Shown here in pieces: positions 7,892 through 24,400 of a stretch of DNA of 39,515 nt. How positions within the stretch are numbered: the stretch's first letter is position 1; the number at the start of each line of letters is the position of its first letter. The stretch covers positions 1 to 39,515 of the IMG/VR virus record IMGVR_UViG_3300044580_000079; one strand, given 5' to 3'. A model generated the notes under the pieces. That model had not been told where the DNA came from and did no database searches. It worked only from the letters and a program-made list of their open reading frames with translations. The DNA is from a virus. Taxonomy: Duplodnaviria > Caudoviricetes. The position numbers and the translations under genes are program-made.

Positions 7892-8168
7892 AGCAATCCG
7901 TTTTCACAACAACGCTCTGAAGGGAAGAATCGTTGCGGAGTTTCTTGAAGCTGAGAACCTGGAAGATGCGAAACAATTTGCCGAATTATTGTCAATTTTA
8001 CTTATCAATACCGGCGCTGAAATAGGGTTTACCGTTTACATGACCGCTAAAACGGATGAAGAAAAAACAAACATGATTAAAGATTTTTTAAACAAAATCG
8101 GAGAAGTTGTCTTCGATACAATATTTCGATTGGAAATCCAGAAAAATAAATTTACAAATGCAGCATAA
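7878..8168 (+). CDS. Hypothetical protein
   Basis: AGGAG RBS; last gene before terminator. Confidence 0.65.
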   Translation: MTMNEAIRFHNNALKGRIVAEFLEAENLEDAKQFAELLSILLINTGAEIGFTVYMTAKTDEEKTNMIKDFLNKIGEVVFDTIFRLEIQKNKFTNAA

Positions 8169-8185
8169 AAAATCATCAACCATGA

Positions 8186-8217
8186 ACAAGGCGGGGTTTG
8201 GTGCCCCGCCTTTTGTT
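8186..8217. terminator. Intrinsic terminator between convergent operons
   Basis: AAGGCGGGG-N7-CCCCGCCTT followed by TTGTT. Confidence 0.85.
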
Positions 8218-10249
8218 ATTTCCATTCGTTAGACTTAAGATCAAATTTCCAACCCTCAGATAAGGTGTATCGCATTTTTCGATTGTTCGGATTCTTTTCC
8301 TTATCGACCCACGTTTTCCCCTTTACGATTTTGGCAACATTGAATACCTCACCTTCGATTTCGGAAGCATTAGAAAGCGCCACGTACAAGGACGCATAAT
8401 GTTGCGTTATGTCTCCCCCATATCCAAGGCTTCTTCCTGGGGGCTTTTGAATTGCCACAAATGCAACCCCCCGGTTTAATCGCTTGCAAATCTCACCGAT
8501 CACTAAACCAACCTGGAAAAATTCTCCGCCAAGATCGTACGAAATAAAGTCGATGATATTTATTGCGTCAGGTTCGACCAGGTTAAGGTTATTGCTTCTC
8601 CATTCCACAAAGTCAAGGTATCCTGCATCGTGTGCCTCCCGCCACCTTTCCAACAAACCCATTTGCTCAATCCTGACCCGCAGCATCTCTTCCCCCAACT
8701 CCGAAGAGAAATAAACAATGCGGGATGGGTTTTTTACTTCTAAATTTAGCTTGACAGCATTGAGCATGAAGGCGGTCTTTCCCGCATTAGACCCACCCGC
8801 AACGACAATCAAACCCTTAGGGTGAATTTTAACCAAACTGTTAAGGCCCATCGGCAACATCACCGGGTGATCCTGACTGACCGCATCAAAGGGGTTGAGA
8901 AGGTTTTTGGTTTTATCGACCTTAATATATGTCCCACCCTTATTCCCATAAGGCGCAATATCTCCACGATGAGCTATTCTATTGAGAATTCTTTTAACAT
9001 AATCTCTTTTAGCATTGGGGATTTTTTCACAAACTATTTCCCAAACATCCCTTACGGTAAAATACCCAGATTCATGGGATTCAAGAAATTTTTCTATTTC
9101 TAAGGTAATCCCAACATTCTTTTTTTGCAAAAACTTCAAAACAGCATCGACCTTGTTGAGGGCTTCATGCATTGGGAATGGTGGATTGCAGTTTTGAGCA
9201 AGAAGCAATGCTTCATGTTCCAATGCGCTCCGTGGCGCACCGGCACGGGCATAAAGCAAAAGCCGGTTAAAAATAGTATCGTCCCTCATGCCTTCAGGAA
9301 TTTGAATATCATCAGGATCAATTTCCTGTATTGAATTGTCCCCTTTGTCCCAGGTTGTCTTGTCTGTCCCTACCTGTCCCATCTGTCCCGCACTATCCCG
9401 TTTGTCTTGTTGAATCCCGATGGGACGTTGGGGAGGACAGGGTGCGGTGTCCCGATCGACAGCCTTTGTCCCGCCGGGACAAGTAGTGGGACATGCATTT
9501 TCTTCTTTATTTTCAATGGGTTGGACATTATTCGGGACACTTTTTTGTTCTTCCACGTTTGTACCCTCAAGCATATTATTTTTTTGCATATTTAAATTAA
9601 TATTATTATTTATTAAATTAGAAGTATTATTTTTTATTAAGTTAGTAGTATTATTTTTTAATAAGTTAGTAGTATTATTTTTTAATAAGTTAGAAGTATT
9701 ATTTAAAAAAGAATATTTATTATTTTTAATTAAATTAACCAATGCTTGAGGTAGGGGCGGTTCATCAAGGTTGTTTAAATCCCGCCCCTTCACCCATTTA
9801 TATGCCCTTCCGTCTTTTAGCATTGACGGCGGGGCAATTACATATCCCCCATTACCCCGGACATCGACATTTGGCAAAACATTTCTCGCATTACCAATGT
9901 CATCTGAATACATGAAATACAGGTGATACCCATTGTTCGGTGTAATTACAAGGGGAATATCCTGGGTGTCTCTTCCGCATATTTCTTTAACCCTTTTAAG
10001 GTCAGCACCGCTGTCAATATCCAACACAACAATGCCGGATACTTCCCCACAAACAATGCCAATTAATGCATTGTTGTAATGCATCCACCAATCCCTGATT
10101 TCCTCTTCGGTGGCAATGCGCTTCTGATATTCAGACCATTCGATTAAGGGTTTCTTTTGGTCTGGCCCTGCACCAACCGGAATGACCGAATATGCCAGTT
10201 CTACATACAACAATGCAGCCTTTAAATTATTCATCTCATTTACAAACAT
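8216..10249 (-). CDS. Bifunctional primase-polymerase (Prim-Pol) fused to RecA/DnaB-like helicase
   Basis: N-terminal SVIPV, KKPL, VVLDID, TPNNGYHLYF, DVRGNGGYVIAPPS; PriCT-like EGMRDD...NCNPP; Walker A GGSNAGKT, IIDFI. Confidence 0.92.
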   Translation of the reverse strand: MFVNEMNNLKAALLYVELAYSVIPVGAGPDQKKPLIEWSEYQKRIATEEEIRDWWMHYNNALIGIVCGEVSGIVVLDIDSGADLKRVKEICGRDTQDIPLVITPNNGYHLYFMYSDDIGNARNVLPNVDVRGNGGYVIAPPSMLKDGRAYKWVKGRDLNNLDEPPLPQALVNLIKNNKYSFLNNTSNLLKNNTTNLLKNNTTNLIKNNTSNLINNNINLNMQKNNMLEGTNVEEQKSVPNNVQPIENKEENACPTTCPGGTKAVDRDTAPCPPQRPIGIQQDKRDSAGQMGQVGTDKTTWDKGDNSIQEIDPDDIQIPEGMRDDTIFNRLLLYARAGAPRSALEHEALLLAQNCNPPFPMHEALNKVDAVLKFLQKKNVGITLEIEKFLESHESGYFTVRDVWEIVCEKIPNAKRDYVKRILNRIAHRGDIAPYGNKGGTYIKVDKTKNLLNPFDAVSQDHPVMLPMGLNSLVKIHPKGLIVVAGGSNAGKTAFMLNAVKLNLEVKNPSRIVYFSSELGEEMLRVRIEQMGLLERWREAHDAGYLDFVEWRSNNLNLVEPDAINIIDFISYDLGGEFFQVGLVIGEICKRLNRGVAFVAIQKPPGRSLGYGGDITQHYASLYVALSNASEIEGEVFNVAKIVKGKTWVDKEKNPNNRKMRYTLSEGWKFDLKSNEWK
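9337..9539. repeat. TGTCCC/GGGACA iteron cluster (candidate origin)
   Basis: TGTCCC at 9337, 9346, 9365, 9375, 9384, 9448, 9467; GGGACA at 9476, 9488, 9534. Confidence 0.8.
9618..9704. repeat. AT-rich 24-bp tandem repeat (~3.6 copies), candidate unwinding element
   Basis: TTAGWAGTATTATTTTTTAWTAAG units encoding NNT(S/T)NL(L/I)K repeats. Confidence 0.85.
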
Positions 10250-10475
10250 GCTTATTTCCTAACGGAAAGGGAAGCTGTCTTGGATCAATCACTTCGACCT
10301 CCTTGGGATCGGGAGCATCTTCCAGGGGACAGAAATAAGCAATGCGTTCATTTATGTTGTCATCAGTTAAATACCTTTTGACGTACATGCGCCAGGAATT
10401 GAACCAATACTGCCCCCGCAGGAAATATGGACACTCTTCACAAAAGCCAACCCTAATCATTTTCTGCTTAGTCAT
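10236..10475 (-). CDS. Cys-rich hypothetical protein
   Basis: CEECPY...FCPLED. Confidence 0.65.
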   Translation of the reverse strand: MTKQKMIRVGFCEECPYFLRGQYWFNSWRMYVKRYLTDDNINERIAYFCPLEDAPDPKEVEVIDPRQLPFPLGNKHVCK

Positions 10476-10713
10476 TTTGTTTTATCCTTTCATATTGTTG
10501 AACCCAAATATTGTCTTTTTCTATCAATCCAATGCTTTTTGGATCAACGCACTTAAAGCCCTTGCGATGCATTTCGAAGCCATGAATACCACCAAATGTT
10601 TTGTGACATCCCGTACAATGCGCTCTCGCTAAACCAGACCATATGGAACCGCAGATTCTACAAGAATGCTTTGTCATTTTTATTCTCCTTATGATGGGAA
10701 GCCCTTTTTTCAA
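10468..10713 (-). CDS. Phage FDXHR-type zinc-binding protein
   Basis: CRIC...HCTGCHKTFGGIHGFEMHR...CVDP; true start possibly MTKHS. Confidence 0.7.
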   Translation of the reverse strand: MKKGLPIIRRIKMTKHSCRICGSIWSGLARAHCTGCHKTFGGIHGFEMHRKGFKCVDPKSIGLIEKDNIWVQQYERIKQND

Positions 10714-10866
10714 GCGATCTCATTTTGGTAATGGTTTGATAAGGGGTATAAAGTTTTACCCTTTTGCCATCAAAACCAGTTTCAAAAAACCCAATAAAAT
10801 CAAGGGGCAAATTTTCCTGTTTTTAGGACTTTTGGATAGTCCGTGACCTACTTTTTGGTTTTTGGC

Positions 10867-11049
10867 TCATTCTTCGGGAACGGTGAGCCACATGCCATTT
10901 ACATATCGCTTCAATTGCAGCCTATAAACCCCCCCCTTGCGGTTTTCAATAGCAACCCATTCAAATACACCACCGCATTGTGGGCATTTCACGGTAAACT
11001 TTCCCTTTGGGAGTAGGTATTTTTTGCAATCAGGGCATTTGAAGTGCAT
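10867..11049 (-). CDS. Zinc-ribbon protein
   Basis: CPDC...CPQC; AGGAGG RBS. Confidence 0.65.
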   Translation of the reverse strand: MHFKCPDCKKYLLPKGKFTVKCPQCGGVFEWVAIENRKGGVYRLQLKRYVNGMWLTVPEE

Positions 11050-11286
11050 TTAGTTCCTCCTGTTTTCATAATATGCTTTCAAGCTCAACATTCGTTCGGT
11101 ATCTATTCCACCACGTAGCCAACCACGAACACGCATTGGTTTGCCGGTCACTTCTTGCAAAAACTTGTCACACTTTTGGCATATCTCACGTTCATCTTGG
11201 GGCCAGCAAACATACTTTCTGACCCTGTTTGGGTTCTTTCTAAATCTCTTGGGAGTATTCCAGAAACCAATCGTTTCACTTACCAT
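11050..11286 (-). CDS. Hypothetical protein
   Basis: AGGAG RBS, in operon. Confidence 0.6.
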   Translation of the reverse strand: MVSETIGFWNTPKRFRKNPNRVRKYVCWPQDEREICQKCDKFLQEVTGKPMRVRGWLRGGIDTERMLSLKAYYENRRN

Positions 11287-11620
11287 GATGTTTTCTCCTT
11301 TTAGGTAAATATTTTTCGGAAAATTCTTTCAAGCAGACATCGCAATACCTACTGTTTTTACCGAAAATTTCTATGCCACAAATCATACAATGGCAATGTC
11401 TTGCGCCCATTCCCTGCTTGTTATTAAGCCCGGTAAGAGGGCTTCGATAAATTGGTTTGGTATCGGGAATGATGTCAAGTTTTTTGGGATTGTAAAATAC
11501 AAGCACCCGCTCCGATCCCCTGCAATCCTTGAGGCATCTCCACCTACGTTCTTCCCATTTCCCCTCATTGGTCTGCTCAAAAAGCATTGCCGATCCGCAT
11601 ACCGAACATTTAGGGTTCAT
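11276..11620 (-). CDS. Zinc-finger hypothetical protein
   Basis: CSVC, CMIC...CDVC; AGGAGG RBS. Confidence 0.65.
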   Translation of the reverse strand: MNPKCSVCGSAMLFEQTNEGKWEERRWRCLKDCRGSERVLVFYNPKKLDIIPDTKPIYRSPLTGLNNKQGMGARHCHCMICGIEIFGKNSRYCDVCLKEFSEKYLPKRRKHHGK

Positions 11621-11795
11621 TTATCCTCCTTATGGGCTTTGTTTTTAATAGGTATCGTATGGCCCGCCTTGCTCCCCTTGTCAGGGATTTGAATCTTTGT
11701 AATTGGGTAATGACGTAATGTTCGCCACGTGTTACTTTAACTGTGACTTCTGGTTCATATAGAATATGGTGGATTTGAAAAATTGTTTTCTTCAT
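11610..11795 (-). CDS. Small HNH-like protein (degenerate)
   Basis: IHHILY...VTRGEH resembles the HNH core. Confidence 0.45.
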   Translation of the reverse strand: MKKTIFQIHHILYEPEVTVKVTRGEHYVITQLQRFKSLTRGARRAIRYLLKTKPIRRINEP

Positions 11796-11802
11796 TGTCC
11801 TC

Positions 11803-11934
11803 TTAATCTCCCAAGCATTTGGCTTTTCCGTATGGTATATTCAGCATCTTTGCTAAATACTTCACGTACTTTTCGCACTTTCCGTTTTTAATTTGACGAT
11901 ACCCCTTGTTGTTGTGATGTCTCCTGGTTTTCAT
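11803..11934 (-). CDS. Small basic protein (not in ORF track)
   Basis: GAGG RBS; MKTRRHHNNKGYRQIK..., 43 aa filling the operon gap. Confidence 0.55.
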   Translation of the reverse strand: MKTRRHHNNKGYRQIKNGKCEKYVKYLAKMLNIPYGKAKCLGD

Positions 11935-11944
11935 GCTGCGCCTC

Positions 11945-12163
11945 TTATTTTCCTCTGGCCTTCCGTTTGGAGGCTTTCAGGGGGTTTATTTCTTTTTCCT
12001 TGACTTCCTTAACGATGTTCACGTTAGGCGCAAGAGGACAGTATCCAAAATGCCATTGCATTTCGGGGTATAAATAGGCCCGGCAAATTTTTCCAGTTAC
12101 AAACTTACAACCATAACACTTTTCACCGATGTTGCTATCAGGTTCAAAATCAACGTTTTTCAT
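11945..12163 (-). CDS. Cys-rich hypothetical protein
   Basis: CYGC..C..CPLA and C-terminal NPLKASKR. Confidence 0.65.
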   Translation of the reverse strand: MKNVDFEPDSNIGEKCYGCKFVTGKICRAYLYPEMQWHFGYCPLAPNVNIVKEVKEKEINPLKASKRKARGK

Positions 12164-12326
12164 TTTGTTTCTCCTTTTTATGTTTTTTGGGTGTTAAGCG
12201 GTGCAGCGCACCATGTTCATCGGCAATGTATTTCGTTCCATCCCGCATCACGTAAATACGTCCGGGGCGTATGGTTGCATTGGGGTGAACAATATTGATT
12301 TCCGGCTTGATAATCAGGTCATTCAT
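12150..12326 (-). CDS. Small hypothetical protein (not in ORF track)
   Basis: AAGGAGG RBS; MNDLIIKPEI..., 58 aa. Confidence 0.55.
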   Translation of the reverse strand: MNDLIIKPEINIVHPNATIRPGRIYVMRDGTKYIADEHGALHRLTPKKHKKEKQNEKR

Positions 12327-12395
12327 TGATCCTCCTTATTTCCGCTGTCCTGAGCGGATATGTTGGGTCATTGGGGAAAAAGATTTCCCCGATCA

Positions 12396-13007
12396 TCATA
12401 AAGGGGCTTTAGCCTCCTCCGGCAAAGGATTGACGACCGGGCAGTGCTTCCGATAGAAGCACTTTAAACAAAACTTCTTGACAACCTTTTTTCCTTTCAT
12501 GGATTTGTGCGGGCCTTCGCAGATGCGAGTTTCATTGTCGTCACTATTTTTTTCCTTCGGTTCTACCGTTGGTTTTGAGGTAGTTTCAATCGGTTCCTTT
12601 TTTACGGGTTCCTGGGAATCCGCATCTTTGGTATCATCAATGAGTAATAGCCCATTAAGGGCATATTTCCTGGCATAAGAAGAGGCTGCACCTGTAACCT
12701 GAGCATCATCCATTCCTTTTTTGCTGTCCGCTTCACGGGCAAAAGCAACTCCGGTTATGCTTTGGATTCCATCCGTAAATTCAGCCGTTACCTTGACATA
12801 GAACCGATTCCCAATCGGAACGATTTCATCGTAAAGCCTAAGCGTATAGCCTTCAGGGATCAGGGGCTTGACAGCCTCTAAAATATCTTCACAGTTCCGG
12901 TAGCTGTATTTTCCGAATTCGTTATACTGATTTTTAGGGGCTTTCAGCTTCTTTTGAATTTCGCTCAACGCCTTAATCAAAAAATGTTTTCCTTGCATTT
13001 CATCCAT
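12396..13007 (-). CDS. erf: ERF-family single-strand annealing protein
   Basis: LKAPKNQYN..YSYRNCEDILEAVKP; Q.TGAASSYARKYALNGL..IDD.KDAD. Confidence 0.92.
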   Translation of the reverse strand: MDEMQGKHFLIKALSEIQKKLKAPKNQYNEFGKYSYRNCEDILEAVKPLIPEGYTLRLYDEIVPIGNRFYVKVTAEFTDGIQSITGVAFAREADSKKGMDDAQVTGAASSYARKYALNGLLLIDDTKDADSQEPVKKEPIETTSKPTVEPKEKNSDDNETRICEGPHKSMKGKKVVKKFCLKCFYRKHCPVVNPLPEEAKAPL

Positions 13008-13311
13008 TTTGTTCCTCCTTGGGAGTGAGTTTTATGTTTTGGGGACAAGTACGCAATTCCAGTTTGAGATGATTTAGAATTAACTGGACTGCCTTTCTGA
13101 TTTCAACTTCTTCGGTGTAAAAAACATCATTGACGGCATCATATGGGTTCTGTGTTGAAATGCTCGCAATTTGTGTTCTGTAAAGCATCTTTCGGCGAAG
13201 CTCATGTAGATCGCCTTCCAGACGATTGATTTTTTTGCTCAGTTCATACAGGTTGTTGTTTAGGTCATTCATTTGTTCTATGATTTTTTTAAATTTTTTA
13301 CTTGTAAACAT
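13000..13311 (-). CDS. Coiled-coil hypothetical protein
   Basis: Heptad pattern, in operon. Confidence 0.6.
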   Translation of the reverse strand: MFTSKKFKKIIEQMNDLNNNLYELSKKINRLEGDLHELRRKMLYRTQIASISTQNPYDAVNDVFYTEEVEIRKAVQLILNHLKLELRTCPQNIKLTPKEEQNG

Positions 13312-13537
13312 TTTCTTTCTCCTGTTCTTCCGGTTCGGGGTCTTGGGAATTTATGCGAAGCAGTTGGTCGGGGATTTCCAATGAAACTAAAAATGGCCCC
13401 TTCGTTATTCTTTTGTGTTTGTGCCCACTACGTTTATGGGCAAGGTTTGCAAGCTCCTTTGTTGGGTAAATAAAAACAGATTGGTTAAACGTGAAATTTA
13501 CCTCATCATAGATATTGGCCCATCCCTCGATTTTCAT
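13298..13537 (-). CDS. Hypothetical protein
   Basis: ATGA-coupled; GWANIY. Confidence 0.6.
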   Translation of the reverse strand: MKIEGWANIYDEVNFTFNQSVFIYPTKELANLAHKRSGHKHKRITKGPFLVSLEIPDQLLRINSQDPEPEEQEKENVYK

Positions 13538-14424
13538 GCTGCTTCTCCTTCCTCTTCTTCTTCAGAGAAGATTTGATTTTTGTATGGATTAAGATCGCAG
13601 AAATTTCTGACTACACAGAAATCCTTGCAGCGTGTAAATTCTCCGGGTCTTTCTTCGATTTCGACCTTAGACAAATCAATTTTGTTTTTCTTGCAATAGC
13701 CGGAGGCAAACTCTTCCGCTTCCTTGAGGGTCGATTTAACCCCGCCAATGAGGGCACGTTTTGCACCCTTCTTCTTCACCGCATACGTTGTTTCCCTTCT
13801 CCAACGATCTGCATCCGTGCAAGGATCGCTTGGATGCATTTTATGTAAGCGCACCCGGTCGATGACATAACGGGCAGCTTCCTCTTCGCTCCAAACTGGT
13901 ACATTGATTTGCTGAAATGGAATCTTCGGATAATTGAATTCACGGAGGGCTTTTGATCTTACCCAATCTCTCAGGATGGCATTTACTTGCAGCTTGTTTA
14001 CCTGGAAGCCAATATGCCGATAAAGAAAGGCATAGGTATTCAGTTGACGTTCCCACTCAACATGAGGCCCAAGAAGGAAGGAGAAAGCAGAAACGACCTT
14101 ATAATCCGCAACGGTCTTATTCCAATAAAGGTCAGCACGTCCCGCAATCGTGATCCCCAGGATTTCCGCTTGCAGTCTTTCTTCCGCAAGGAAGTCTCCC
14201 CTGGTATGTTGCTCTAAGACGTAGTGTAATCCCTGTCCAAGCAATGCCCAAAGACGATCAGATGCATCTTCCTCAAGTTCATCCCAATAAAGCTTTGTCA
14301 GATGACGGATCAGGGGTGGGCCTATAAGATGACTTACCGAAATGCGTCCATCTACCGGGGGATAGACACGGGACACGGCACGATGAATGGGTTCGGGCAG
14401 ATTAAAATTGTTAGTAATTTTCAT
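13534..14424 (-). CDS. PD-(D/E)XK / Cas4-like exonuclease
   Basis: G..LH..LE, EERL, GRADL, DYK, QLNTY; C-terminal RCKDFC.V..FC cluster. Confidence 0.85.
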   Translation of the reverse strand: MKITNNFNLPEPIHRAVSRVYPPVDGRISVSHLIGPPLIRHLTKLYWDELEEDASDRLWALLGQGLHYVLEQHTRGDFLAEERLQAEILGITIAGRADLYWNKTVADYKVVSAFSFLLGPHVEWERQLNTYAFLYRHIGFQVNKLQVNAILRDWVRSKALREFNYPKIPFQQINVPVWSEEEAARYVIDRVRLHKMHPSDPCTDADRWRRETTYAVKKKGAKRALIGGVKSTLKEAEEFASGYCKKNKIDLSKVEIEERPGEFTRCKDFCVVRNFCDLNPYKNQIFSEEEEEGEAA

Positions 14425-14663
14425 AAGTTATCCTCCTTGATTTGATTTTGTGGATTTTTCTTATATTTTTTAGAAAAACCCCTTGACAAATTCTTGCGTA
14501 TATGATACTTTTGCGGTGAATTGAACATGAGGTTTAGTGGTTTGGTATTTCCATTTAGTGCAGCAGCAAGGGCTTCGTTCATTCCCCTTTCTGCCTTTGG
14601 AGGTTCGGCAATTCCCAATATGATTTCGATTCTCTTAACTCGTTCTTCAATGGTCATGGACAA
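14421..14663 (-). CDS. Hypothetical protein, first gene of leftward lytic operon
   Basis: Downstream of consensus promoter; no clear HTH. Confidence 0.5.
   Translation of the reverse strand: MSMTIEERVKRIEIILGIAEPPKAERGMNEALAAALNGNTKPLNLMFNSPQKYHIRKNLSRGFSKKYKKNPQNQIKEDNL
14479..14511 (+). promoter_or_regulatory. Rightward promoter toward repressor, antisense to 14421..14663
   Basis: CCCC-TTGACA-N17-TACTTT with TGn. Confidence 0.55.
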
Positions 14664-14703
14664 ATCTCGATTTGCTGAATTTCAATTTCACCATCTGATT
14701 AAG

Positions 14704-14740
14704 ATTATATAGCTGCCCCGGATAATTGTCAAGGGGGGGG
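14704..14740 (-). promoter_or_regulatory. Perfect-consensus sigma70 promoter for recombination/replication operon
   Basis: C8-TTGACA-N17-TATAAT. Confidence 0.9.
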
Positions 14741-14814
14741 TAGGGTTTTACTGAACCATCAAAATAAAAAAGGGAGGAGGGGGGCAATGACAAGCAAAAA
14801 AAACAACGTTTAGC

Positions 14815-15450
14815 GTGGATTTCAATGATGCAGTCAAATGGATGTCGCAGTATTGCGCATTCGACAAAAAGAAATCGGGGGAGTTCGTTCAAACGGACAT
14901 CGCAAAAGAATTGGGTGTTACAAAAGGAGCCATCAACGATTTCAAGAACCGGGGTGTCCCAAGCGGAATGTTGATGCGTTTCTCAAAAGATAAAAAAGCA
15001 TCGCTTGATAAATTACTCTTTGGAAAATGCCTTGATGAACCGATAAGAAATAATGATACCGTGGTTTCCCTTCAGTATTACCAGGACGAAAACAAAAAGG
15101 AGGAAAACTTAATGGTCTTACAGGTTCATGTAATTCGCAGTTGGATTACATCAAGCTTTAAAAACCTTGCCGGGATGAAAGCAATGGTCATGGAAGCGAA
15201 CAACATGCAAAACACGCTTCCAAAGGATTCCCTGATGATTATTGATACGAACGAAACAAGCGTTATAGATTCCGGCTTTTATGCCCTCAAAATGGGAAGC
15301 AAACTGTTAGTACGCAAATACGTCAGCCGGACAGATGGTAGCGCAGAGGAAATGCAAGAAACCCCACCTGATAGCGTCAGGCTGTCCAGGGAAGAGGTTT
15401 CAAGGCTGCCCATTTATGGAAGGGTGGTAAAAGTTCTTCGTGATGTTTAA
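14815..15450 (+). CDS. CI-like repressor (HTH plus degenerate S24 peptidase domain)
   Basis: QTDIAKELGVTKGAINDFKNRG HTH; C-terminal S24 fold (IIDT, GFYAL, IYGRVV); divergent from lytic promoter, upstream of integrase. Confidence 0.85.
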   Translation: MDFNDAVKWMSQYCAFDKKKSGEFVQTDIAKELGVTKGAINDFKNRGVPSGMLMRFSKDKKASLDKLLFGKCLDEPIRNNDTVVSLQYYQDENKKEENLMVLQVHVIRSWITSSFKNLAGMKAMVMEANNMQNTLPKDSLMIIDTNETSVIDSGFYALKMGSKLLVRKYVSRTDGSAEEMQETPPDSVRLSREEVSRLPIYGRVVKVLRDV

Positions 15451-15451
15451 C

Positions 15452-15480
15452 TTGACAAAAAAATAAAGTTGTGCTATATT
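15452..15480 (+). promoter_or_regulatory. Integrase promoter
   Basis: TTGACA-N17-TATATT with TGn; AGGAG RBS downstream. Confidence 0.75.
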
Positions 15481-15502
15481 ATAAAAAAAGGAGGGATCAA
15501 AA

Positions 15503-16540
15503 ATGTCTGTCAGAATGAGAAACGGTCGGTATGTCGCCGACTTCTACCCTGAAGGTAGAAAGGGGCCACGGAAACAAATTTCCCTTCCCGTAGGAATCGA
15601 CCTGGAAAAAGCCCTTGAGTTGGAGTTACAGCTAAAGATTCTTGCAACCAACCAAGTCAAGCAAAAGAATTCACCGGACGGAACCGTTTCTACCCACTTC
15701 CAAAAATATTTGGAGTGGTACAAGATTCATCGTCAACCTACGACATACAGAGACATTGAGTCTATTTTTAGAACCCACGTAGAACCGATCCTTGGCAGCA
15801 TAGAATTAAAGAAGATCGGACTTGCCCATATCGACTTTTACAAAAAGACCCGTAAGGAAGAGGGCGCAAATAACGCCACCATTAATAAGGAGTTGTCCTA
15901 TTTTGCCGGGTTTTTGAGATGGGCAGAGGAGAACAAGCTAATTGACCAAAGGGCATTTCGCATTCGGAAGCTGCCCTATAAACGGCCCCTACCCATGACT
16001 CTTTCACCGGAAGAAGTAAATGCTATCCTTGAAAACATGGAGCAGCCCTACCGTGCCTTTGTGACAGCCCTATATACTCTTGGGTTGAGATTTTCTGAGG
16101 CTGCCAACCTTTCCTGGAACAATGTTGACCTGACTGTTCGTCAACTGAGGGTAAGGCAAAAGGGTGGGGGGTGGAAAATCCTGCCGATCAATCCAAGGCT
16201 GTACGATGAGCTTATTGCCATTAAAAATAAGGATGGTTTTGTGTTTCGTTCCATTGTGAATCAGGGTAGAATTAGGGACATTCGGAAGGCATTGTGGAGG
16301 GCCAAAGAAAAGGCCGGGATCAAAAGGCATATTTATCCCCACCTGTTCCGACACTCCATTGCCACGACCCTCATGGACAAGGGTGTCAACATGCGCATTA
16401 TTCAGGGATACCTTGGGCATGCAGACATCACGACCACCCAATGGTACACACAGGTCGCAATAGAGAATTTAAAGGCAGCAGAAAACGCCATCATTGGAAT
16501 GACTCCTGAAGTTCAGGAGAGAAAGGAGTTAAATGCATGA
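15503..16540 (+). CDS. int: Tyrosine integrase
   Basis: GLRFSE (R), QKGG (K), HLFRH, LGHADITTTQWY. Confidence 0.96.
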   Translation: MSVRMRNGRYVADFYPEGRKGPRKQISLPVGIDLEKALELELQLKILATNQVKQKNSPDGTVSTHFQKYLEWYKIHRQPTTYRDIESIFRTHVEPILGSIELKKIGLAHIDFYKKTRKEEGANNATINKELSYFAGFLRWAEENKLIDQRAFRIRKLPYKRPLPMTLSPEEVNAILENMEQPYRAFVTALYTLGLRFSEAANLSWNNVDLTVRQLRVRQKGGGWKILPINPRLYDELIAIKNKDGFVFRSIVNQGRIRDIRKALWRAKEKAGIKRHIYPHLFRHSIATTLMDKGVNMRIIQGYLGHADITTTQWYTQVAIENLKAAENAIIGMTPEVQERKELNA

Positions 16541-16697
16541 ATAGCTTTGTTGCGATTTTGCCGGTATGGGTAATATTACTGTTTGCAATGGATGCGATAT
16601 GCGGTTATAGCCCATTTGAATTGGGGTGGGCATGGTTTATCAGACCTGTTCTGGCATCGTTTTGGACGTTCTGTTTTGCCAAAGAAATGTAATTGCT

Positions 16698-16740
16698 CCC
16701 CGTCCGACACGCCGAAAGGCCCGGACGGGGTTATTTTTTT
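16698..16740 (+). terminator. GC-rich hairpin with GAAA tetraloop followed by T tract
   Basis: CCCCGTCCG..GCC-GAAA-GGC..CGGACGGGG TTATTTTTTT. Confidence 0.7.
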
Positions 16741-16750
16741 AGGAGGGGTT

Positions 16751-16828
16751 ATGCCCACTGAACCCCTCGTAAAGCGCGCCGTTACCTTCATCGACGGTCA
16801 AAATCTCTACCATTCGGTTCGTGAATCC
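16751..16828 (+). pseudogene. 5' fragment of NYN (LabA/DUF88-like PIN) nuclease gene
   Basis: AGGAGG RBS, MPTEPLVKRAVTFIDGQNLYHSVRES carries the FIDGxN motif; truncated at tRNA fragment. Confidence 0.75.
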
Positions 16829-16863
16829 GAAAGTAACAGGTTCAAATCCTGTCGGGCGCACCA
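16823..16863 (+). other. attP core: 3' half of a tRNA (probably tRNA-Arg)
   Basis: TCCGA anticodon-stem 3' strand, 5-nt variable loop, ACAGG-TTCAAAT-CCTGT T-arm, CGGGCGC-A-CCA; about 280 bp downstream of integrase. Confidence 0.88.
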
Positions 16864-16899
16864 AACCGCCCGATATTATTAACAAAAAAGGAGGTAGCC

Positions 16900-17103
16900 A
16901 TGAAAAAGGTAATTTTGTCGTCACTACTTTTTGGCCTATTGGTCACTACATCCTGCACTCAATCTATTGGGCCGTATGTAAGGAATGTTCAGGTTGACCG
17001 TGACAATCAGTTGGTGGTTGAACGTTGCGTGATTTCGATCTCGCAGGCGACTTCTTCTTTGTCTGCCGATCAATGCACGGTTGAGAAGCATCAGATTCGA
17101 TAG
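16900..17103 (+). CDS. Small lipoprotein (possible lysogenic conversion or superinfection exclusion)
   Basis: AGGAGG RBS; MKK, hydrophobic stretch, lipobox-like TTSC. Confidence 0.7.
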   Translation: MKKVILSSLLFGLLVTTSCTQSIGPYVRNVQVDRDNQLVVERCVISISQATSSLSADQCTVEKHQIR

Positions 17104-17236
17104 TTTTTTTCTTCTTGAGGGCAGCGAGTTTTATTTTCTCCTTACAATAAAAAAGGTGCTGCTCATAAACCGCAGCACCCCTTCCAGGCTCCCCCAAATC
17201 CATAAAGATCGACCTGCACTTATCGCACACGATCAT
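16964..17236 (-). CDS. Hypothetical protein
   Basis: CDKC...H..YC; 3' part overlaps the convergent lipoprotein gene. Confidence 0.4.
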   Translation of the reverse strand: MIVCDKCRSIFMDLGEPGRGAAVYEQHLFYCKEKIKLAALKKKKTIESDASQPCIDRQTKKKSPARSKSRNVQPPTDCHGQPEHSLHTAQ

Positions 17237-17441
17237 GTTTCTTTTTTCGTTCCTCCATTTTGCGTATTGCCTGATGAGTTTTATTGGCCTCCTGAATAAT
17301 CCAACGCCTTAAATCTGAAGCCAATTCCGGGTCAGCTTTTTCAACCGTTTCTGCATACGTTTCCATAGCAGCCCTGCTTGCAAGGGCATATAGCGTATTG
17401 CCCTCCGGTTTCAAAACGAAATACTTCTTTCTCAGGATCAT
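17220..17441 (-). CDS. Hypothetical protein
   Basis: KYFVLKP...ASRAAM..YA; GGAGG RBS, ATGA overlap. Confidence 0.65.
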   Translation of the reverse strand: MILRKKYFVLKPEGNTLYALASRAAMETYAETVEKADPELASDLRRWIIQEANKTHQAIRKMEERKKKHDRVR

Positions 17442-17791
17442 ATAATATCCTCCGGTGGTTGAATAGTTGGGGAAGGCTTAAACTTCCCCTTTTTATCTCG
17501 TTGTTGTTTGGGTTTGGGTAATTTGTCATCAATGAACATGGCAAGAGGACAACCCACAACCGATCCAATACTGTTAAAAAAGGCGTACTTCCAGTTGTTT
17601 GCATATTGCCAGTATCCTTCCCAGGATACCAAGGCTGTCATCAGGCCAGAAAGGAGGGCAGCGGACAGCATTGATCCCCGCATTACCCTCCTTACAAAAA
17701 ACACATAAAGCAAATCATCCAACACCGAAGCACTAAATACGGCAATGGCAATCCATGTTTCCATAAGGCTCCCGGCCTTATCCGCAATCAC
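17438..17791 (-). CDS. Membrane protein (about 3 TM)
   Basis: Three hydrophobic segments; C-terminal RDKKGKF. Confidence 0.65.
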   Translation of the reverse strand: MIADKAGSLMETWIAIAVFSASVLDDLLYVFFVRRVMRGSMLSAALLSGLMTALVSWEGYWQYANNWKYAFFNSIGSVVGCPLAMFIDDKLPKPKQQRDKKGKFKPSPTIQPPEDII

Positions 17792-17792
17792 T

Positions 17793-18053
17793 TCACCTTG
17801 GTTTTGGTTGTGCGGAAGGCTTTGTTTTCTTGGCTTCCTGTATTCTTTGTTTGGTCTTTTTCTCCAATGCTTTCACCTTGGCCTCAAGTTCCTTATTTGC
17901 GTCAATCGGTTCCAGGGATTGCAGCCACTTGGACATGCATTTGCGATTACAAAACGCAAACTTTTCCCCGCCCGGCACGATAAGCAATGCACCATCTCCA
18001 TTAAAGAGGGTTGCACCGCAACCGTTACATTCATAACCGCAATTTTTAAGCAA
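17793..18053 (-). CDS. Zinc-finger (TRASH/FCS-like) plus coiled-coil protein
   Basis: CNGC...FCNRKC; start re-called at TTG after AAGGAGG. Confidence 0.55.
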   Translation of the reverse strand: MLKNCGYECNGCGATLFNGDGALLIVPGGEKFAFCNRKCMSKWLQSLEPIDANKELEAKVKALEKKTKQRIQEAKKTKPSAQPKPR

Positions 18054-18450
18054 CCTGTTTTTCCTCCTTTTTCGAATATTTCTCCAAATAATATTGGTAG
18101 ATGTCGGTAGGATCACTCATCCCGGAAACCTTTTTTAAACCTTCCAAATACCGATCATCCAGGTCTGGCCTATCCTTCATCATGCGCTGAGCAAACATAA
18201 TGCAGCATTGGGCATGGGCAAGGTGAGATAATCCCGATTCAGGATCAAAATCTTCACCATCTATGAACGCAAACAGGTGTCTCAGGGCAGCATTCATGAG
18301 GCGCATGATATGAATCCCGCCTCGCCAGTTGTATCGTTTGTATTTGGTTGCGCCGTAATCCATCACCCTTGCAATTTCTTCAAGGGCATGCCTGTCAAGT
18401 AATGCCAAGGACGGTTTCCCCTGATCGTATTTCTTTCCAGTTGCTTCCAT
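18046..18450 (-). CDS. dATP/dGTP diphosphohydrolase domain protein (DUF5664-like)
   Basis: GKKYDQGKP, VMDYGATKY..NW, AALRHL, DPESGLSHLAHA. Confidence 0.9.
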   Translation of the reverse strand: MEATGKKYDQGKPSLALLDRHALEEIARVMDYGATKYKRYNWRGGIHIMRLMNAALRHLFAFIDGEDFDPESGLSHLAHAQCCIMFAQRMMKDRPDLDDRYLEGLKKVSGMSDPTDIYQYYLEKYSKKEEKQVA

Positions 18451-18463
18451 ATATCCTCCTTTG

Positions 18464-18910
18464 TCAACATCTAATGTCTATGAGATTTTCTCTCATGAAA
18501 TAATCAATCATGGCGTTAAAGTCATGAAAGATTTGACCGCCCGAAACAGAAGCAATATAGCGCAGCCACGGATGTTTTCCGCAATCCGGGGTAACAATAT
18601 ATACCGGCTTTTTGGCTTTGGTGGCTGCATGCCATGCTTCGCAGATTGTCCCAACCGAAAACTGAATGCTTGTTATCACCGCTATTACGCCATCAGACTG
18701 CTCAACGCCATTCAGGTCTTTGGTCACAAGCCTATTAAAATCTTCTACGTCCCATCGTGTTTTTTGACCGGAATCAATTTCGTGAATATCATCTCGGCCT
18801 GTATCGTAAAACGGGTTCAAAATGTCCAGGGTATATCGCCTTTCAATCAACAATTCCAACTCCCTAAGTCCTTTTCTCATATCAATCGGGTGCGCCAAAT
18901 ACAATTTCAT
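18464..18910 (-). CDS. Nucleoside 2-deoxyribosyltransferase-like protein
   Basis: LYLAHP, NPF, DL..V..SDGVIA, SVGTICE, KPVY. Confidence 0.85.
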   Translation of the reverse strand: MKLYLAHPIDMRKGLRELELLIERRYTLDILNPFYDTGRDDIHEIDSGQKTRWDVEDFNRLVTKDLNGVEQSDGVIAVITSIQFSVGTICEAWHAATKAKKPVYIVTPDCGKHPWLRYIASVSGGQIFHDFNAMIDYFMRENLIDIRC

Positions 18911-19275
18911 ACTGATCCTCCTTTTATTGCCGATACAATTCTCCTGACTATATCTTCTTGTTCATCATCAAGAAGATTTTCAGTCGTGTATCGTGATTTT
19001 GCCAGAGATTCATATTTCGCCATCAGGATATGCAGCACCTCATGCATTGCAGAATTGAGAAGTTGTTTAATGCAAACTTCCTCTGGATACCAATTGGTTG
19101 ATAGGATGATCTTGGCGATCTTATTGGTAATATCAGGAATGCAAGCTGCCTTTGCATCTTTGAGCCTTTTGTGTTCAAAGATGAAGTCCCAATCTTTTAG
19201 GCCAAACCTGTCAATCCATTTCTTGCATTCCAATGTAAAAATCTTGAAATCACTTTTTGATGTTTTGTACCGCAT
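18907..19275 (-). CDS. Zincin-like metalloprotease-domain protein
   Basis: FGLKDW, HEVLH (HExxH), EQE..V; start re-called at MRYK. Confidence 0.7.
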   Translation of the reverse strand: MRYKTSKSDFKIFTLECKKWIDRFGLKDWDFIFEHKRLKDAKAACIPDITNKIAKIILSTNWYPEEVCIKQLLNSAMHEVLHILMAKYESLAKSRYTTENLLDDEQEDIVRRIVSAIKGGSV

Positions 19276-19525
19276 CGAAAGCCCACAATGCTCTTGGGGT
19301 GTCCAAGATAATACTTCCATTCAGTTTGTCAGTATCATCAAAAATTACTTCATATCCCGGATGCGTAAACTGCTTCGCAATCTTCACGGGAACGTCATTC
19401 GGGTCTGGTTGTTTGTCGGGTGGTTTCTCTGGATTCTTTGGTATGTTGAGCACGTAAGTCTTAGCCACCCGACTCATCAGCCACAGGGAAAACCTTACCG
19501 TTAGATTTGTAAAAAATTTTTTCAA
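19250..19525 (-). CDS. Hypothetical protein
   Basis: TTG start overlapping upstream stop, GGAG RBS. Confidence 0.5.
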   Translation of the reverse strand: MKKFFTNLTVRFSLWLMSRVAKTYVLNIPKNPEKPPDKQPDPNDVPVKIAKQFTHPGYEVIFDDTDKLNGSIILDTPRALWAFDAVQNIKK

Positions 19526-20265
19526 GCGTATCTCCTTCCATTGGCCCAAAATTTTCCTTCGATGATATTCACCTGGAAATCATTAAACAGACCGGTTTTG
19601 GTATCGACATAGGCATAATTAAAACCATGAACCCAACGGTTCGGTTTGTTTTTCAACCAACGTGGGTTTCGATTACAAAGACACCCGCATGACATTGCTT
19701 TTGTCGGTTGAGAATCAATGGGACTAACAAGGGTGTATGTTTGTTGATCGTGAACATGACCATAAAGAATGTTCTTCTGGTAAACCATTGCAGTTTTTTC
19801 CGCATGATATTTCACTGTGTAAACCCCATGCATGTAATAGAGGTGCTGAGTTACCTGATAGGGAACGTTCAGGGGAATTATTTCCATGCGATATTTTCTT
19901 AGGGAAATATTACGATCCAATTCCCAATATCCTCTACCGTTGCGGTTTATTCCCGCAGCTTGTGCCAACCAATATTCATGGTTGCCTATCAGGTATATCA
20001 TTGAGGAAAATTTAGGAATTGCATTGATGAGGGGATTTAAAACAACATCATGTAATTGTTCATAGCTTTTGAAGATCGTATCACCGTCTAATTGTTGGGA
20101 CTGATCCGCAATCCATTGGCTTGCAGCAGTCCAATCGTGAATATCGCCACCAAGGATTACTTTGTGGGGTTTAAAATCGTGAATAAATTCAAAGACATTG
20201 TTCAGGGGAATATTAAACGGAACATGAATATCGAAAAGAGACACGATTCTCTCTTCCAAGGTCAT
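19522..20265 (-). CDS. Calcineurin-like metallophosphoesterase
   Basis: DIH, GDIHD, GNHE, HG, GHVH motifs. Confidence 0.92.
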   Translation of the reverse strand: MTLEERIVSLFDIHVPFNIPLNNVFEFIHDFKPHKVILGGDIHDWTAASQWIADQSQQLDGDTIFKSYEQLHDVVLNPLINAIPKFSSMIYLIGNHEYWLAQAAGINRNGRGYWELDRNISLRKYRMEIIPLNVPYQVTQHLYYMHGVYTVKYHAEKTAMVYQKNILYGHVHDQQTYTLVSPIDSQPTKAMSCGCLCNRNPRWLKNKPNRWVHGFNYAYVDTKTGLFNDFQVNIIEGKFWANGRRYA

Positions 20266-20289
20266 CCTCCTTAGTCAAGCTTTACTTAA

Positions 20290-20322
20290 ACTATAATAAT
20301 TTACTAAACGATTGTCAAGGGG
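20290..20322 (-). promoter_or_regulatory. Promoter for nucleotide-enzyme operon
   Basis: CCCC-TTGACA-N17-TATAGT. Confidence 0.8.
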
Positions 20323-20342
20323 TGGGTACTGATATTCTTGAC

Positions 20343-20786
20343 TTAAACGATATTGTAAAGAAAAAGGTCTTGTTCTGCCTTACGTCTTTTTACCAAACCC
20401 GGTAAAATACGACCGGCAGCATAGACCCACTTGGGGAATTCCAGGGCAGCGTCATCATATTCGCCCCGGTTCAGCTTTGATCGCAGGGTGCTTCGTTGTA
20501 AGGCTCCTCCTCCCAAATTGAATGTAAAAGAGATAAGAGCATCAAACTGTCCGTCTGTGAGTGGTACTCGTATGAGCCTTGACACGGAAAGCTCAGACAC
20601 CAGACAGTCTCTTCGCAGAATCTCTTCTCCTTGGGATTCGTCAATTCCATTCTGAAAATCCTCTCCGGGCCTCACAACGTGACCCCATCCAATAGTAGGA
20701 TAACCGGCGGGACAGATATAAATCTTGGGGCTAAACCCCTCAAAACGCTTAATGAGATTTAGCCCCTTATCGGTTATATGTCTCAT
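20343..20786 (-). CDS. Lysozyme endolysin (GH24)
   Basis: IKRFEG, Y.CPAG.PTIGWGH, QFDALISF.FNLG, LPGLVKRR.AE; start re-called at MRHIT. Confidence 0.93.
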   Translation of the reverse strand: MRHITDKGLNLIKRFEGFSPKIYICPAGYPTIGWGHVVRPGEDFQNGIDESQGEEILRRDCLVSELSVSRLIRVPLTDGQFDALISFTFNLGGGALQRSTLRSKLNRGEYDDAALEFPKWVYAAGRILPGLVKRRKAEQDLFLYNIV

Positions 20787-21238
20787 TATTTCTTCCCATT
20801 CGTGAAATGCTTGATCGAACGGTTTCCAAACCAGAAGCCAAGAACGGCGCACATTAAGGCAAAATCGTTTTCCGTCCAAATAGCATTGAGGGCTTGCTGC
20901 CAAACAGAGGCATTTGCCATAATGGAATACGTTGCAAATTTCGTTGCAACATAAGTTCCAAAAAACACGAAAGTAATAAGTGGTCTAACCAAGGCGTTTA
21001 AACCGGCGACCCATCCTTCTTTGGGTACAGCGAAATTGTAAACTGCCCTTGCCTCTTCGATGTCACCCTGTACGGCAATTTCCTCCATCTTGTAGGTGTG
21101 TCCAAGCTTATCCCGCTCAATTTGTAATTTCATGATCTCAAGTTCATGCTTCTTATCCTGCTTATCCTTAAAATATTTAATTACTTCGGGAATCGCACTT
21201 GCAAGAACGCCACCAATAGCACTTAAAACAGCAAGCAT
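20786..21238 (-). CDS. Holin (3TM/GTA-holin-like)
   Basis: QDKKHEL, VRPLIT, VLGFWFGNR; immediately upstream of lysozyme. Confidence 0.8.
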   Translation of the reverse strand: MLAVLSAIGGVLASAIPEVIKYFKDKQDKKHELEIMKLQIERDKLGHTYKMEEIAVQGDIEEARAVYNFAVPKEGWVAGLNALVRPLITFVFFGTYVATKFATYSIMANASVWQQALNAIWTENDFALMCAVLGFWFGNRSIKHFTNGKK

Positions 21239-21246
21239 AGTTACTC

Positions 21247-21477
21247 CTAAATTCTAATCTTGATGCCAAAGATACCTAAAATCACAACAACAACAATCCA
21301 TACTCCACGTAATATCCACAATTGTCGGTCATGATTTTTGACATCCTTTTTTAGTGATTGCATTTCTGCCTGTTCTTGTTCACATCGGTTTTTAATTGAT
21401 GCAACCAAAAAATCAATTTTTTCGTCTGTGGAATTAAACCGTTCTTGCATCCACTCTTTCAGTTCATCGGTTGTCAT
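21247..21477 (-). CDS. Coiled-coil plus C-terminal TM protein (XhlA-like lysis accessory)
   Basis: ATGA overlap; C-terminal hydrophobic helix; in lysis cassette. Confidence 0.6.
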   Translation of the reverse strand: MTTDELKEWMQERFNSTDEKIDFLVASIKNRCEQEQAEMQSLKKDVKNHDRQLWILRGVWIVVVVILGIFGIKIRI

Positions 21478-24400
21478 TGGATTACTCCCTTTTCTTGCAG
21501 TAGCAACTTTTCCCATTTGGGAATTTTTTCCATTTCCAATTCCTGAAACAACTGGGGATCAAGTGCCTCTGCCCATTCCCTTGCATCATCCCGTATGTCC
21601 TTCAGAATGTCCTGCAAGACCATACCCTTAATCGGGTCGCTGAGCCTCTTGTATCCCGGACTATTAAAGAAGGGTGCAACCTTTTCTGCCAGGAAACCCA
21701 TCTTTTCAGCAATCAGTCTATCGGCCCTTACATTTCCGGTTGAAGGCAGGATGTTTCTCCGCTCAAATCCCAACCTGTCCAGTTCGCTTTCCAGGGGGTT
21801 TTTGGCGGGCCTTGCGGATATTCCGGTCATTTGCCGGAATGCAGGAGCAAGGCTTTTAACCGGCCCTTCTCTTGTCGGCGCATACGCTTCGGGAAGGGTT
21901 TCAGCCAACCCAGGAATCTTGGACTTGATCGGCCCAAGGAACGGTTCGGTTTTGCGCTCCCTCACAATAGATTCATCAAACCCCTCAAGGAATTCACGAA
22001 CCATGTTAAGGGGAGTGACAAACCCACCAACCACCTCACCGGCAAATTGCTTGCCTATGTCTTTGGCCTTTTCCCATGAACGATTGGACGCAAACACCGT
22101 CAATTCGTTCAGCAGTTTATCAACGGCCCACAAGCCCACTCCGGCCCGGAGGTTTACTCCTCCGATCCCCTGAGCAATATCATTCCAATTCATTTTATAT
22201 AGGGAATTTTCCCGGTATTTTTTAGCTAAATCAGCAACAAACAGGTAAGCCCCAAACGGGTTGTACGGCCTCATATCAACGATAGTTCCATCCGGGGTTT
22301 TTAATTCATACCACTTTTCCCCAGCATAATCCGAATTACGAAACTGCCAAGCAGCCCCAAGTAATGCGGAACCCAAGATGGCACGTGACAAAACCCGCAC
22401 GTTCCCCTCAGCAAACGCCTGTCTTTCCTGTTTACTCAATAGCTTGAGTAAACCAAGTGGAGAGTATTCAAAATTGAATTTCAGACTATTTACCATAAAC
22501 CTTGGAAAGGGCAAGATGAACGAAGCACCGGGGACAGCATTAATAAAGCTGACAAACTTCTGTCCGATGCTTCCCCACTTGGGTTGCGTGGCAAACGTAA
22601 AGTCAAGCGACTCTCCTACCGCAAACCGAATGTCATCCAGATCAATTGCTTTGAGATTGTTCTTCTCAATGGCTTCCGCAAGATCAATACCTTTACGGGC
22701 TAATTTCTGATCGAGTTTACCCATAAAGACGGCACGTCTTGTTAGGAATTCCTGGAAACGGTTAAAGAAGTTTGCAACATCAACTGCCTTCTGAATATTC
22801 TTCCCGGTAGCGGAAGCAACATCGGAAGAGTATTGAGCAAACATGCGATCATATTGGGTCGGGGCCATTTTCAGAATTTTGTCCATGACCCCTTTGTTTC
22901 TCTGAAATAATCGCAAGAAGGTTTCCAGGCCATCCAGGGGATTATCCTTGGCAGCCGTATTGAACAATCTCTGAAGTCCGGCATTCAGTCCTTGTTCAAA
23001 GATGTCCAGACCCAAACGGGAACCCTGCACTGTGACGTTACGAATAGCCGTACTGAGTTGAGTTACCAGAAGGCCACGCCTGACATTATCAACCTTCTTC
23101 CACCAATGTTGTAATTCATCCCATGCGGTGTAGTTTTCTCCAAGTGCCTTACGCAATTTTTCAGCTTCCGGGCCTTGTATTTTCTTGGAAAGCCAACCCA
23201 ACAAACCAAGGTTTCTGGCCCATTGGCTTTTCGATATGTCAAAGGCCCTTAAAAATTCTTCGGTTGTAGTGTTGTACGCTTTTAAAATGTTCTCGTAGTT
23301 TTCAGGGTGTAAACGGATTTCTTCCATGATTTGCTCAGACATGAGCTTGTTGGGATCACGTTTAATGCCCTCTTTCAGCATGCTTTTGGTGGCGGAAGTA
23401 GAAACCTCCTTATGTATGTCTGTTCTCAGGGTCGGTTCGGTTAATGGCCCTTCTTTGATCGGGGGGATTTCAACTTGATCGCCATGAATCTTTGTTCCAA
23501 GAGGGGGTTTTTTCCCACCAAGCAATTTGGCAAAGGCAGCCCGGCTGATGGTAAACCCGGAAGCCCCACCAATGACAGCCCCACGAATCCTATTATCTTC
23601 ATCAACGGCAGCACCGGTAGCAGCACCAACCGAAGATGAGGCAATGTCGGATAGAATTTGGGGGTTTACTTTTCCAACCTGTCCCAACCATAATCCAGGT
23701 TCTCTTTCTTTAAACACAAGACCGGCAGCATTTTCTGGTTGCTTGCCAAAAACAAAAGCAATGCCGTCTTTCTGGTATCCAGAATAACCGGCATCTTTCA
23801 TCAGGGTATGAAGAACATTTTTCTGAAACCCAACATCACCGGGGGTATCAGACTGACGGACAATCTGAAGTGCCTTGCTTACAAGCCCCAACTCATCCTT
23901 ATCCAGGTCGTACATCTCCTTGGGTAAAACTGCCTGATAGGGCACTTTCCCGCTTTTCACGATGACTTCCGGGGTTGTCCCCTCCAAATAAAAATCAATC
24001 GTAGGATGATACGGATATTCGGGATGATCCTTGGCAGCTTCAATCTGTCTCAGCTTTTCTTTGGAATATTGCTGAATATCTTGCTCCGCCGGTACTTTAT
24101 CGGTCTTGCCGACATAAACGAAGTCACGTCCGTCCTGGACAAACCCCATCTTCTGCCAGTACGAACCAGACATCTCGCCACTACCGGCCCGGACGGTACG
24201 CCCGGTTTCATCGGCAAACTTTTTGAAGGCTTCAATGGCACGGGAACCGACTCCCCCGGCACTCAAAATACCGGGAATATAGATTTCGTCATCGGTGATC
24301 CTGACGTTGATACCACCTACAACCTTACCGTTATCAAGCAAAGGAACCCTCTCAATACCATCTTTGATTACTTTAGTTTTACCAACTTCCAATCCTGCTT

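Follow-up and report, generated by a model that had tools for sequence, protein, structure and literature searches.

The repressor gene of this digester phage is divided between two reading frames by a run of eight adenines shortly after its start codon. The A8 run probably arose when replication slipped by one base on an ancestral A7 run and thereby broke a repressor related to CI of coliphage 186, and it is likely to be one of several independent repressor-loss alleles in near-identical phages. It is likely that the lesion is an ordinary repressor-loss mutation toward a purely lytic life and not a built-in switch. The window, by which we mean the entire stretch of 39,515 nucleotides that was analysed, corresponds to a complete virus record and has a terminal repeat of 55 nt. 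The features discussed below are listed in Table 1.

Table 1. Features of the repressor-integrase region, with positions in the window
Feature	Position	Strand	Basis or remark
Rightward promoter-like site, TTGACA-17-TACTTT	14483..14511	+	Pattern only, below scan threshold; candidate lysogenic promoter for cI-int
Leftward promoter-like site, perfect TTGACA-17-TATAAT	14704..14732	-	12/12; faces exonuclease, ERF, and primase genes
Shine-Dalgarno sequence GGAGGAGG of the repressor gene	14773-14780	+	Pairing of -12.6 kcal/mol before ATG 14787
True start codon and 8-codon mini-ORF of the A8 allele (ATG ... TAG)	14787..14813	+	Sequence, homologue register
A8 run (8 nt), A7 in one relative	14796..14803	+	In the intact frame, codes for the conserved Lys4-Lys5 of the N-terminal arm
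Rest of CI-like repressor, HTH and S24-like C-terminal domain	14815..15450	+	Called from a GTG with no Shine-Dalgarno sequence
Internal in-frame Shine-Dalgarno sequence AAGGAGG (15097-15103) and ATG 15112	15097..15114	+	-11.6 kcal/mol; candidate start of a 112-aa C-terminal-domain protein
Right-hand breakpoints of relatives (15416, 15421, 15422, 15424)	15416..15424	.	Contigs
Promoter-like site before the integrase	15452..15480	+	11/12, extended -10
Tyrosine integrase, intact ORF	15503..16540	+	PF00589, 1.5e-29
attP-like core, similar to the 3' half of a tRNA	16822..16864	+	Relatives rejoin the window at 16822/16823

ATG 14787 is followed by the codons ACA AGC AAA AAA AAC AAC GTT and then by a TAG at positions 14811-14813. 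A single C separates this stop codon from GTG 14815, which opens the ORF of 211 amino acids (14815-15450) that is called as the repressor. In the intact gene this GTG is codon 10, and no Shine-Dalgarno sequence precedes it (pairing of +1.2 kcal/mol; pairing energies refer to the anti-Shine-Dalgarno motif). When one A is removed from the run, the frame that starts at ATG 14787 extends to 220 codons and reads into the repressor; the length of this simple repeat within the coding region sets the frame. Everything that the preliminary description of the sequence had reported about this layout was found to be exact.

By itself, the A8 run is not unusual for the window, in which the homopolymers of eight are three A8, two T8, one C8, and one G8. 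Runs of seven are commonplace (10 A7 and 10 T7), and AAA AAA accounts for 17 of the 52 Lys-Lys pairs in the 25 long ORFs. It is the register that exceeds chance expectation, since the leader that lies out of frame corresponds to the N-terminal sequence conserved in the repressor family. The length of the run differs among natural genomes, with A8 in the window and A7 in one contig from the relative X1, provided that the A8 is not an error.

The window repressor (P0001) matched PHROG repressor families, with phrog_4 at 1.1e-7, and gave no Pfam match when it was searched alone. Searching P0001 against 1.84 billion representatives returned 57 matches, three of them at 35-36% identity, and a search with the family profile returned 22; the 90% cluster of P0001 has a single member. 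The homologues carry PF07022 and PF00717, where the PF07022 cut-off was passed by P0004, P0006, and P0070 and failed by P0003 and P0021. An N-terminal HTH of the CI type is thereby found both in P0001, through phrog_4, and in the homologues, through PF07022. The best ties of the P0004 structural model were to coliphage 186 CI (2fjr) and LexA, at an E value of 5.9e-6, and the C-terminal fold of the family resembles the domains of 186 CI, LexA, and lambda CI. This S24-like domain lacks the autocleavage dyad, as judged from the fold match and the alignment. Self-cleaving repressors have a GDSM motif and catalytic Ser and Lys positions; in the homologue alignment GDSM is replaced by ANNM/xDNM, and R/K shifts occur at the Lys site. 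The family is probably not self-cleaving since the usual catalytic positions are altered throughout. The predicted protein of the window is a 186-CI-like repressor, encoded upstream of the integrase, and no second copy of the family was found when the window was searched with the family profile.

An alignment of homologous repressors across the N-terminal extension, which the preliminary description had proposed as a check, revealed a basic arm common to 21 of the 25 homologues (P0002-4, P0021, P0006-9, and P0058-74, with other weak or partial matches left out). Eleven residues precede an invariant Phe in these 21 proteins, 13 in one, 46 in one, and none in two, and the cluster mates of the last two are full-length. 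The A7 frame of the window places 11 residues ahead of this Phe, and the GTG product only two. Lys5 is found in 21 of 21 homologues and Lys4 in 18 of 21, within an arm whose consensus is M-S-R-K-K-Y-T-F. The family profile meets the window from position 14797, upstream of the GTG and in the repressor frame, and the KKTTFS of the A7 frame falls opposite KKEFFS of P0004. In the P0004 model, the arm pairs with the domain by a bridge at residues 9-10 and 57-58. The homologue register and the profile alignment identify ATG 14787 as the ancestral start and the A-run as the Lys-Lys of the conserved arm, and they show that slippage is not required by the family. The same register, together with the A7 contig in X1, bears out the earlier proposals: the true start is ATG 14787, the intact allele is A7, and the allele of this genome is the broken (OFF) one. 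P0069, P0071, and P0079 were called 18 residues short while their cluster mates are full length, which could reflect differences in start calling or further frameshifts in Lys-Lys runs. One member of a homologue cluster is labelled Deltaproteobacteria.

The repressor gene is situated between the leftward promoter-like site and an integrase that has a promoter-like site of its own. From this gene order and these sites, the candidate repressor would be expected to repress the lytic promoter and to maintain lysogeny. No operator repeat family was found in the window, a search of the window against Rfam returned nothing real, and a leftward ORF of 80 codons could not be named as Cro; no Apl/Cro homologue was recognised. 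The tRNA behind the attP-like core is presumably tRNA-Arg, and ARAGORN called no tRNA at the core. Integration-dependent immunity, for which the att site lies in the 3' end of the repressor gene, was set aside because the att-like core follows the integrase. To the left of the core (16693-16882), X1, X6, and X7 carry a different sequence of 55-56 nt in place of 129 nt of the window. The 129-nt segment contains a Shine-Dalgarno sequence and the start of a NYN-domain-looking gene that is cut at the core; this gene had no Pfam match, and the Atlas offered a weak lead, a cluster of which 18% carries PF01936. The att arm of the window may have been altered.

Part of the region was found in 15 listed runs from 9 studies, mostly recorded as metagenomes of digesters, biogas, sludge, or wastewater, and seven of these runs (X1-X7) were compared as contigs only. 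A single contig bridges the A-run. It comes from X1, has a depth of 7.1, and carries A7, and it is itself broken farther downstream by a 28-nt deletion at 15040 and a 319-nt skip from 15096 to 15416. In X2 a bridged skip of 684 nt, from 14736 to 15421, removes the whole gene with its Shine-Dalgarno sequence, and in X5 a bridged skip of 327 nt runs from 15096 to 15424. The X3 contigs contain a joint from 14477 to 14690 across the rightward promoter-like site, and the letters between are not known. The bridged lesions of X1, X2, and X5 and the X3 joint, which are independent lesions in near-identical genomes, come from three studies (P1, P2, and P4). Weaker signs add two more studies: a 6-nt insertion in the spacer of the rightward promoter-like site in X4 (contig depth 2.6), a departure of the 18.6x main contig of X6 from the window at 14782, and, in X7, at least 255 letters of foreign sequence attached ahead of 15422, which were not found in the window or in the viral contigs. 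Some disturbance of the repressor unit was observed in all seven relatives. The window itself carries a disrupting repressor lesion with its lysogeny genes otherwise present.

No intact full-length repressor allele of this phage was seen in the seven runs, and the P0001 cluster has no other member; the wild type is therefore a reconstruction. Minor contigs without the deletions occur in X1, X4, X5, and X6, none of which covers the whole gene, and they indicate mixed populations. These minor contigs count against the repressor-loss interpretation, as does the fact that A7 is known from one contig in one run and that this contig is broken as well. As a control, all nine joints in 20 kb were considered, and seven of them were outside the repressor unit. 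Four of the outside joints were common to two runs or repeated one site (11831, 12010, 16692), loose ends in X6 and X7 also mark the site at 24088, and a further two joints were private (7885 and 6940). The genome is thus variable, yet the repressor unit is where every run has a disrupting change of its own. The depth was lowest of 30 bins in 14671-15337 for four of four runs, though contig depth cannot rank regions and this minimum was not counted as evidence. The parallel lesions suggest selection on lysogeny or at least release from selection for it.

The right-hand breakpoints of the relatives cluster about 30 nt ahead of the -35 box of the integrase and are joined to three different left partners. 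The chance that four uniform points in 351 nt fall within 9 nt is 5e-5, and that for three is 1.7e-3, where both values are post hoc and X1 and X5 could be kin. X1 and X5 have the same left breakpoint, which may reflect shared descent, and their deletions from 15096 begin exactly at the internal Shine-Dalgarno sequence (15097). P0002 carries a Met at the position matching the internal ATG 15112. A distant homologue of 84 aa, P0021, has its HTH joined to the last 11 residues of the family, with the fusion at the codon that matches 15416-15424. A cut site for a nuclease or for the integrase is one candidate explanation of the clustering, and a boundary set by the need to keep the integrase promoter is another.

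If the A8 allele arose by repressor loss, a slip of the DNA polymerase on A7 would have added one A, and ribosomes would load at the strong Shine-Dalgarno sequence and halt at codon 9 after reading eight codons. Residual repressor could leak from reinitiation at the GTG, which would yield a protein without the conserved arm, from the 112-aa C-terminal-domain protein started at the internal Shine-Dalgarno sequence and ATG 15112, or from rare slipped mRNA. Without repressor, the consensus leftward promoter would be unrepressed and lytic growth would follow. All steps past the DNA sequence are inferred. Repressor-loss alleles of this kind would probably leave the phage unable to hold lysogeny. 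By analogy, such lesions may have spread because dense digester hosts favour lytic growth or an escape from the immunity that related prophages confer.

The clearest precedents for repeated repressor loss are found among the mycobacteriophages. The accessible part of PMC13664763 describes many deletions and 1-nt indels that arose independently in the repressor across 117 genomes of subcluster A3 mycobacteriophages; only one of these lesions was tested, and some are possibly artefacts according to the authors. The cases of D29, of the A3 phages Cat, Goose1X, and Bxz2, and of the cluster A defence-escape mutants phiTM46 and phiTM47, as far as the accessible text goes, resemble the present one in that near-identical genomes have differing repressor deletions or 1-nt indels and keep the integrase. 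The mycobacteriophages differ in being plaque isolates biased to clear plaques, whereas the populations studied here are uncultured digester populations; the repressor family and the host are also different, and the loss of lysogeny is here a prediction from sequence. Among immunity-escape mutants in the accessible part of PMC6550527, 8 of 9 have a change at the rep locus, 1-bp insertions included. The accessible parts of three further sources describe repressor mutants with clear plaques in a Bacillus phage (PMC12786184), pf5r mutants (PMC11996451), and Shimadzu operator mutants (10.1101/575076); the corresponding parts of PMC3564112 and 10.64898/2026.10.07.757260 contain nothing decisive for the repressor question.

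The window repressor and coliphage 186 CI share the structural tie of the P0004 model and a C-terminal domain without the usual catalytic residues. As in the cI-int region of 186, the repressor and integrase are co-oriented and the promoter-like sites are convergent. The identity to 186 CI is, however, 14%, and the window family has its own N-terminal arm; unlike coliphage 186, the window has capsid and portal genes of the podovirus type and lacks a recognised Apl/Cro homologue.

Among the other explanations, it is unlikely that the A-run is a maintained contingency locus, in which fast, reversible flips between A7 and A8 would act as a heritable temperate/lytic switch. Both lengths do exist in nature, in the window and in X1, and the run is located at codons 4-6, where a slip produces a clean null. 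According to the accessible part of bioRxiv 10.1101/2025.10.21.683753, A-run frameshifts in T2 and T4 revert approximately 1,000-10,000 times faster than point mutations, runs of at least 6 are 2.03-fold enriched in coliphage regulatory genes, and the phage contingency loci described are those of lytic phages. The T2 agt and T4 rIIA loci in that text are similar to the present case since a coding A-run gains or loses one base and turns the gene off in a manner that is reversible in principle, and by the same token the A8 allele could in principle revert. They differ since that work measured both the reversion and its benefit, for defence-related genes of lytic phages; the word "temperate" is absent from the accessible text, in which no lysogeny switch is tested. 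No population with both alleles was seen in the contigs of the seven runs, the relatives lose the gene through irreversible deletions, and A7 is, as counted above, an ordinary length in this genome. The Lys-Lys pair accounts for the run, and 3 of the 21 homologues do without it. Since Lys is required at positions 4-5 in this family, the A-run can be regarded as a mutational hot spot by accident. Of the phase variation suggested in the preliminary description, the broken allele stands, and the evolved switch is unlikely, given the irreversible deletions and the lack of a two-allele population in these runs. A broader proposal combines a reversible lifestyle switch at the Lys-Lys A-run with site-directed deletions that end at a fixed position just before the integrase promoter, a position also found in a distant relative, and lock lineages into lysis; we regard it as improbable. 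If reversible switching or directed deletion were true, phages with non-cleavable repressors would have a new lysis/lysogeny choice, and a true switch would provide mutation-driven control of that choice for a repressor that the SOS response cannot cleave. No report of a homopolymer-switched lysogeny repressor was found in a partial search of the literature.

It is also doubtful that A8 is a dose-limiting allele, from which reinitiation at the GTG or a low level of slippage would supply enough repressor for a less stable lysogen. The spacing of TAG-C-GTG suits termination-reinitiation, and the window keeps an intact integrase, intact promoter-like sites, and an undamaged remainder of the repressor gene. 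The 211-aa GTG product retains the HTH, has a good predicted fold (pLDDT 88), and may keep some activity. This product would, however, start from what is merely codon 10 of the intact gene, with no Shine-Dalgarno sequence, and would lack the arm, which is the best-conserved N-terminal feature of the family and is paired with the domain in the P0004 model. The importance of an N-terminal arm is known from lambda CI. Reinitiation at the GTG, the last of the options raised earlier, is possible as a leak whose product lacks the conserved arm. Slippage during transcription or translation fares less well. The homologues use no split frame, and their proteins are continuous from the same start in 21 of 25 cases. 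Efficient slippage by RNA polymerase is tied to 9 A/T in the accessible part of PMC5009743, and the run here is 8. Neither a run of at least 9 A/T nor a recognised shift site with a stimulator was found, no strong structure is adjacent, and 3' of the run there is only a weak, distant hairpin, which was folded with no shuffle control. Slippage in Thermus dnaX (9 A/T) is comparable in that a homopolymer parts two frames of one gene; it is unlike the present case since the run here is 8, the split is absent in the homologues, and no second product has a conserved tail. Programmed recoding, including the slippage option of the preliminary description, is not supported because the homologues are continuous, the run simply encodes Lys-Lys, and eight adenines fall short of the length at which slippage is efficient.

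There is a small probability that A8 reflects an over-call in sequencing or assembly, in which case the repressor of the sampled phage would be an intact A7 gene. The sole independent contig on the run has A7, and A8 was found in none of the seven runs compared. The lengths of the 17 runs of at least 7 in 6000-25999 were compared with gap-free or gap-explained contig pieces of the relatives. Twelve matched the window, two had one extra base in the window (at 6901 relative to four of four runs and at 14796 relative to one of one), and three did not resolve; the extra A at 6901 fits a tendency to over-call. On the other side, 12 of the 14 resolvable runs agree with the relatives, and long genes remain in frame across 38 A-runs of at least 6, a weak control since ORFs were picked for length. 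The 55-nt terminal repeat is typical of k=55 short-read assembly, which would argue against general homopolymer error. The private SNPs and the private 21-nt gap at 17107 mark the window as a distinct lineage, and the disturbance of the repressor unit in all seven relatives makes a real lesion expected. The sequencing error that had been allowed for at the outset thus keeps some probability, and a real slip is more likely. The A-run at 6901-6907, shorter by one A in four of four runs, and the A-run at 6718-6724, shorter by one A in X6 and X7, are both near gene ends in the ArdC-like module.

With a repressor-loss allele as the preferred reading, the window provides a modest field example of a digester temperate phage that appears to lose its repressor repeatedly in uncultured populations. 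Calls of the kind "integrase plus repressor = temperate" in metagenomes can mislead because the repressor appears to be repeatedly lost, and in this genome the 211-aa gene call hides a broken gene.

Searches of the viral contigs with the repressor, the integrase, the primase, and two family alignments gave no relative, and the exonuclease as query matched 23 loci, with identities of 25-38%, of which no locus has a repressor of the family. The metagenome contigs gave only five distant integrases, and there was no match among the annotated phages. A match of L001 to the repressor start region was attributed to chance. A match of the att core to a Thiomargarita MAG in the genome contigs was rejected as a pointer to the host since it covers only the 3' part of the tRNA; in 101 genomes of the phylum of this MAG, only distant CI-like proteins were found (33/101, best 9e-21).

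Several other features of the genome were recorded. In an otherwise minus-strand genome, an ArdC anti-restriction gene and six small ORFs make up a block on the plus strand at 5879-8168, and X6 has a joint between 6940 and 24302 on opposite strands. Loose ends of four of four runs fall at 9600-9706 inside the primase/helicase gene, in a variable internal segment. At 24088, X1 has 390 extra letters in a gene of 1299 codons. Genes resembling a dATP/dGTP diphosphohydrolase and a nucleoside deoxyribosyltransferase adjoin a phosphoesterase gene at 18046-18910 and 19522-20265, and together these genes possibly form a nucleotide-modifying or anti-defence module.
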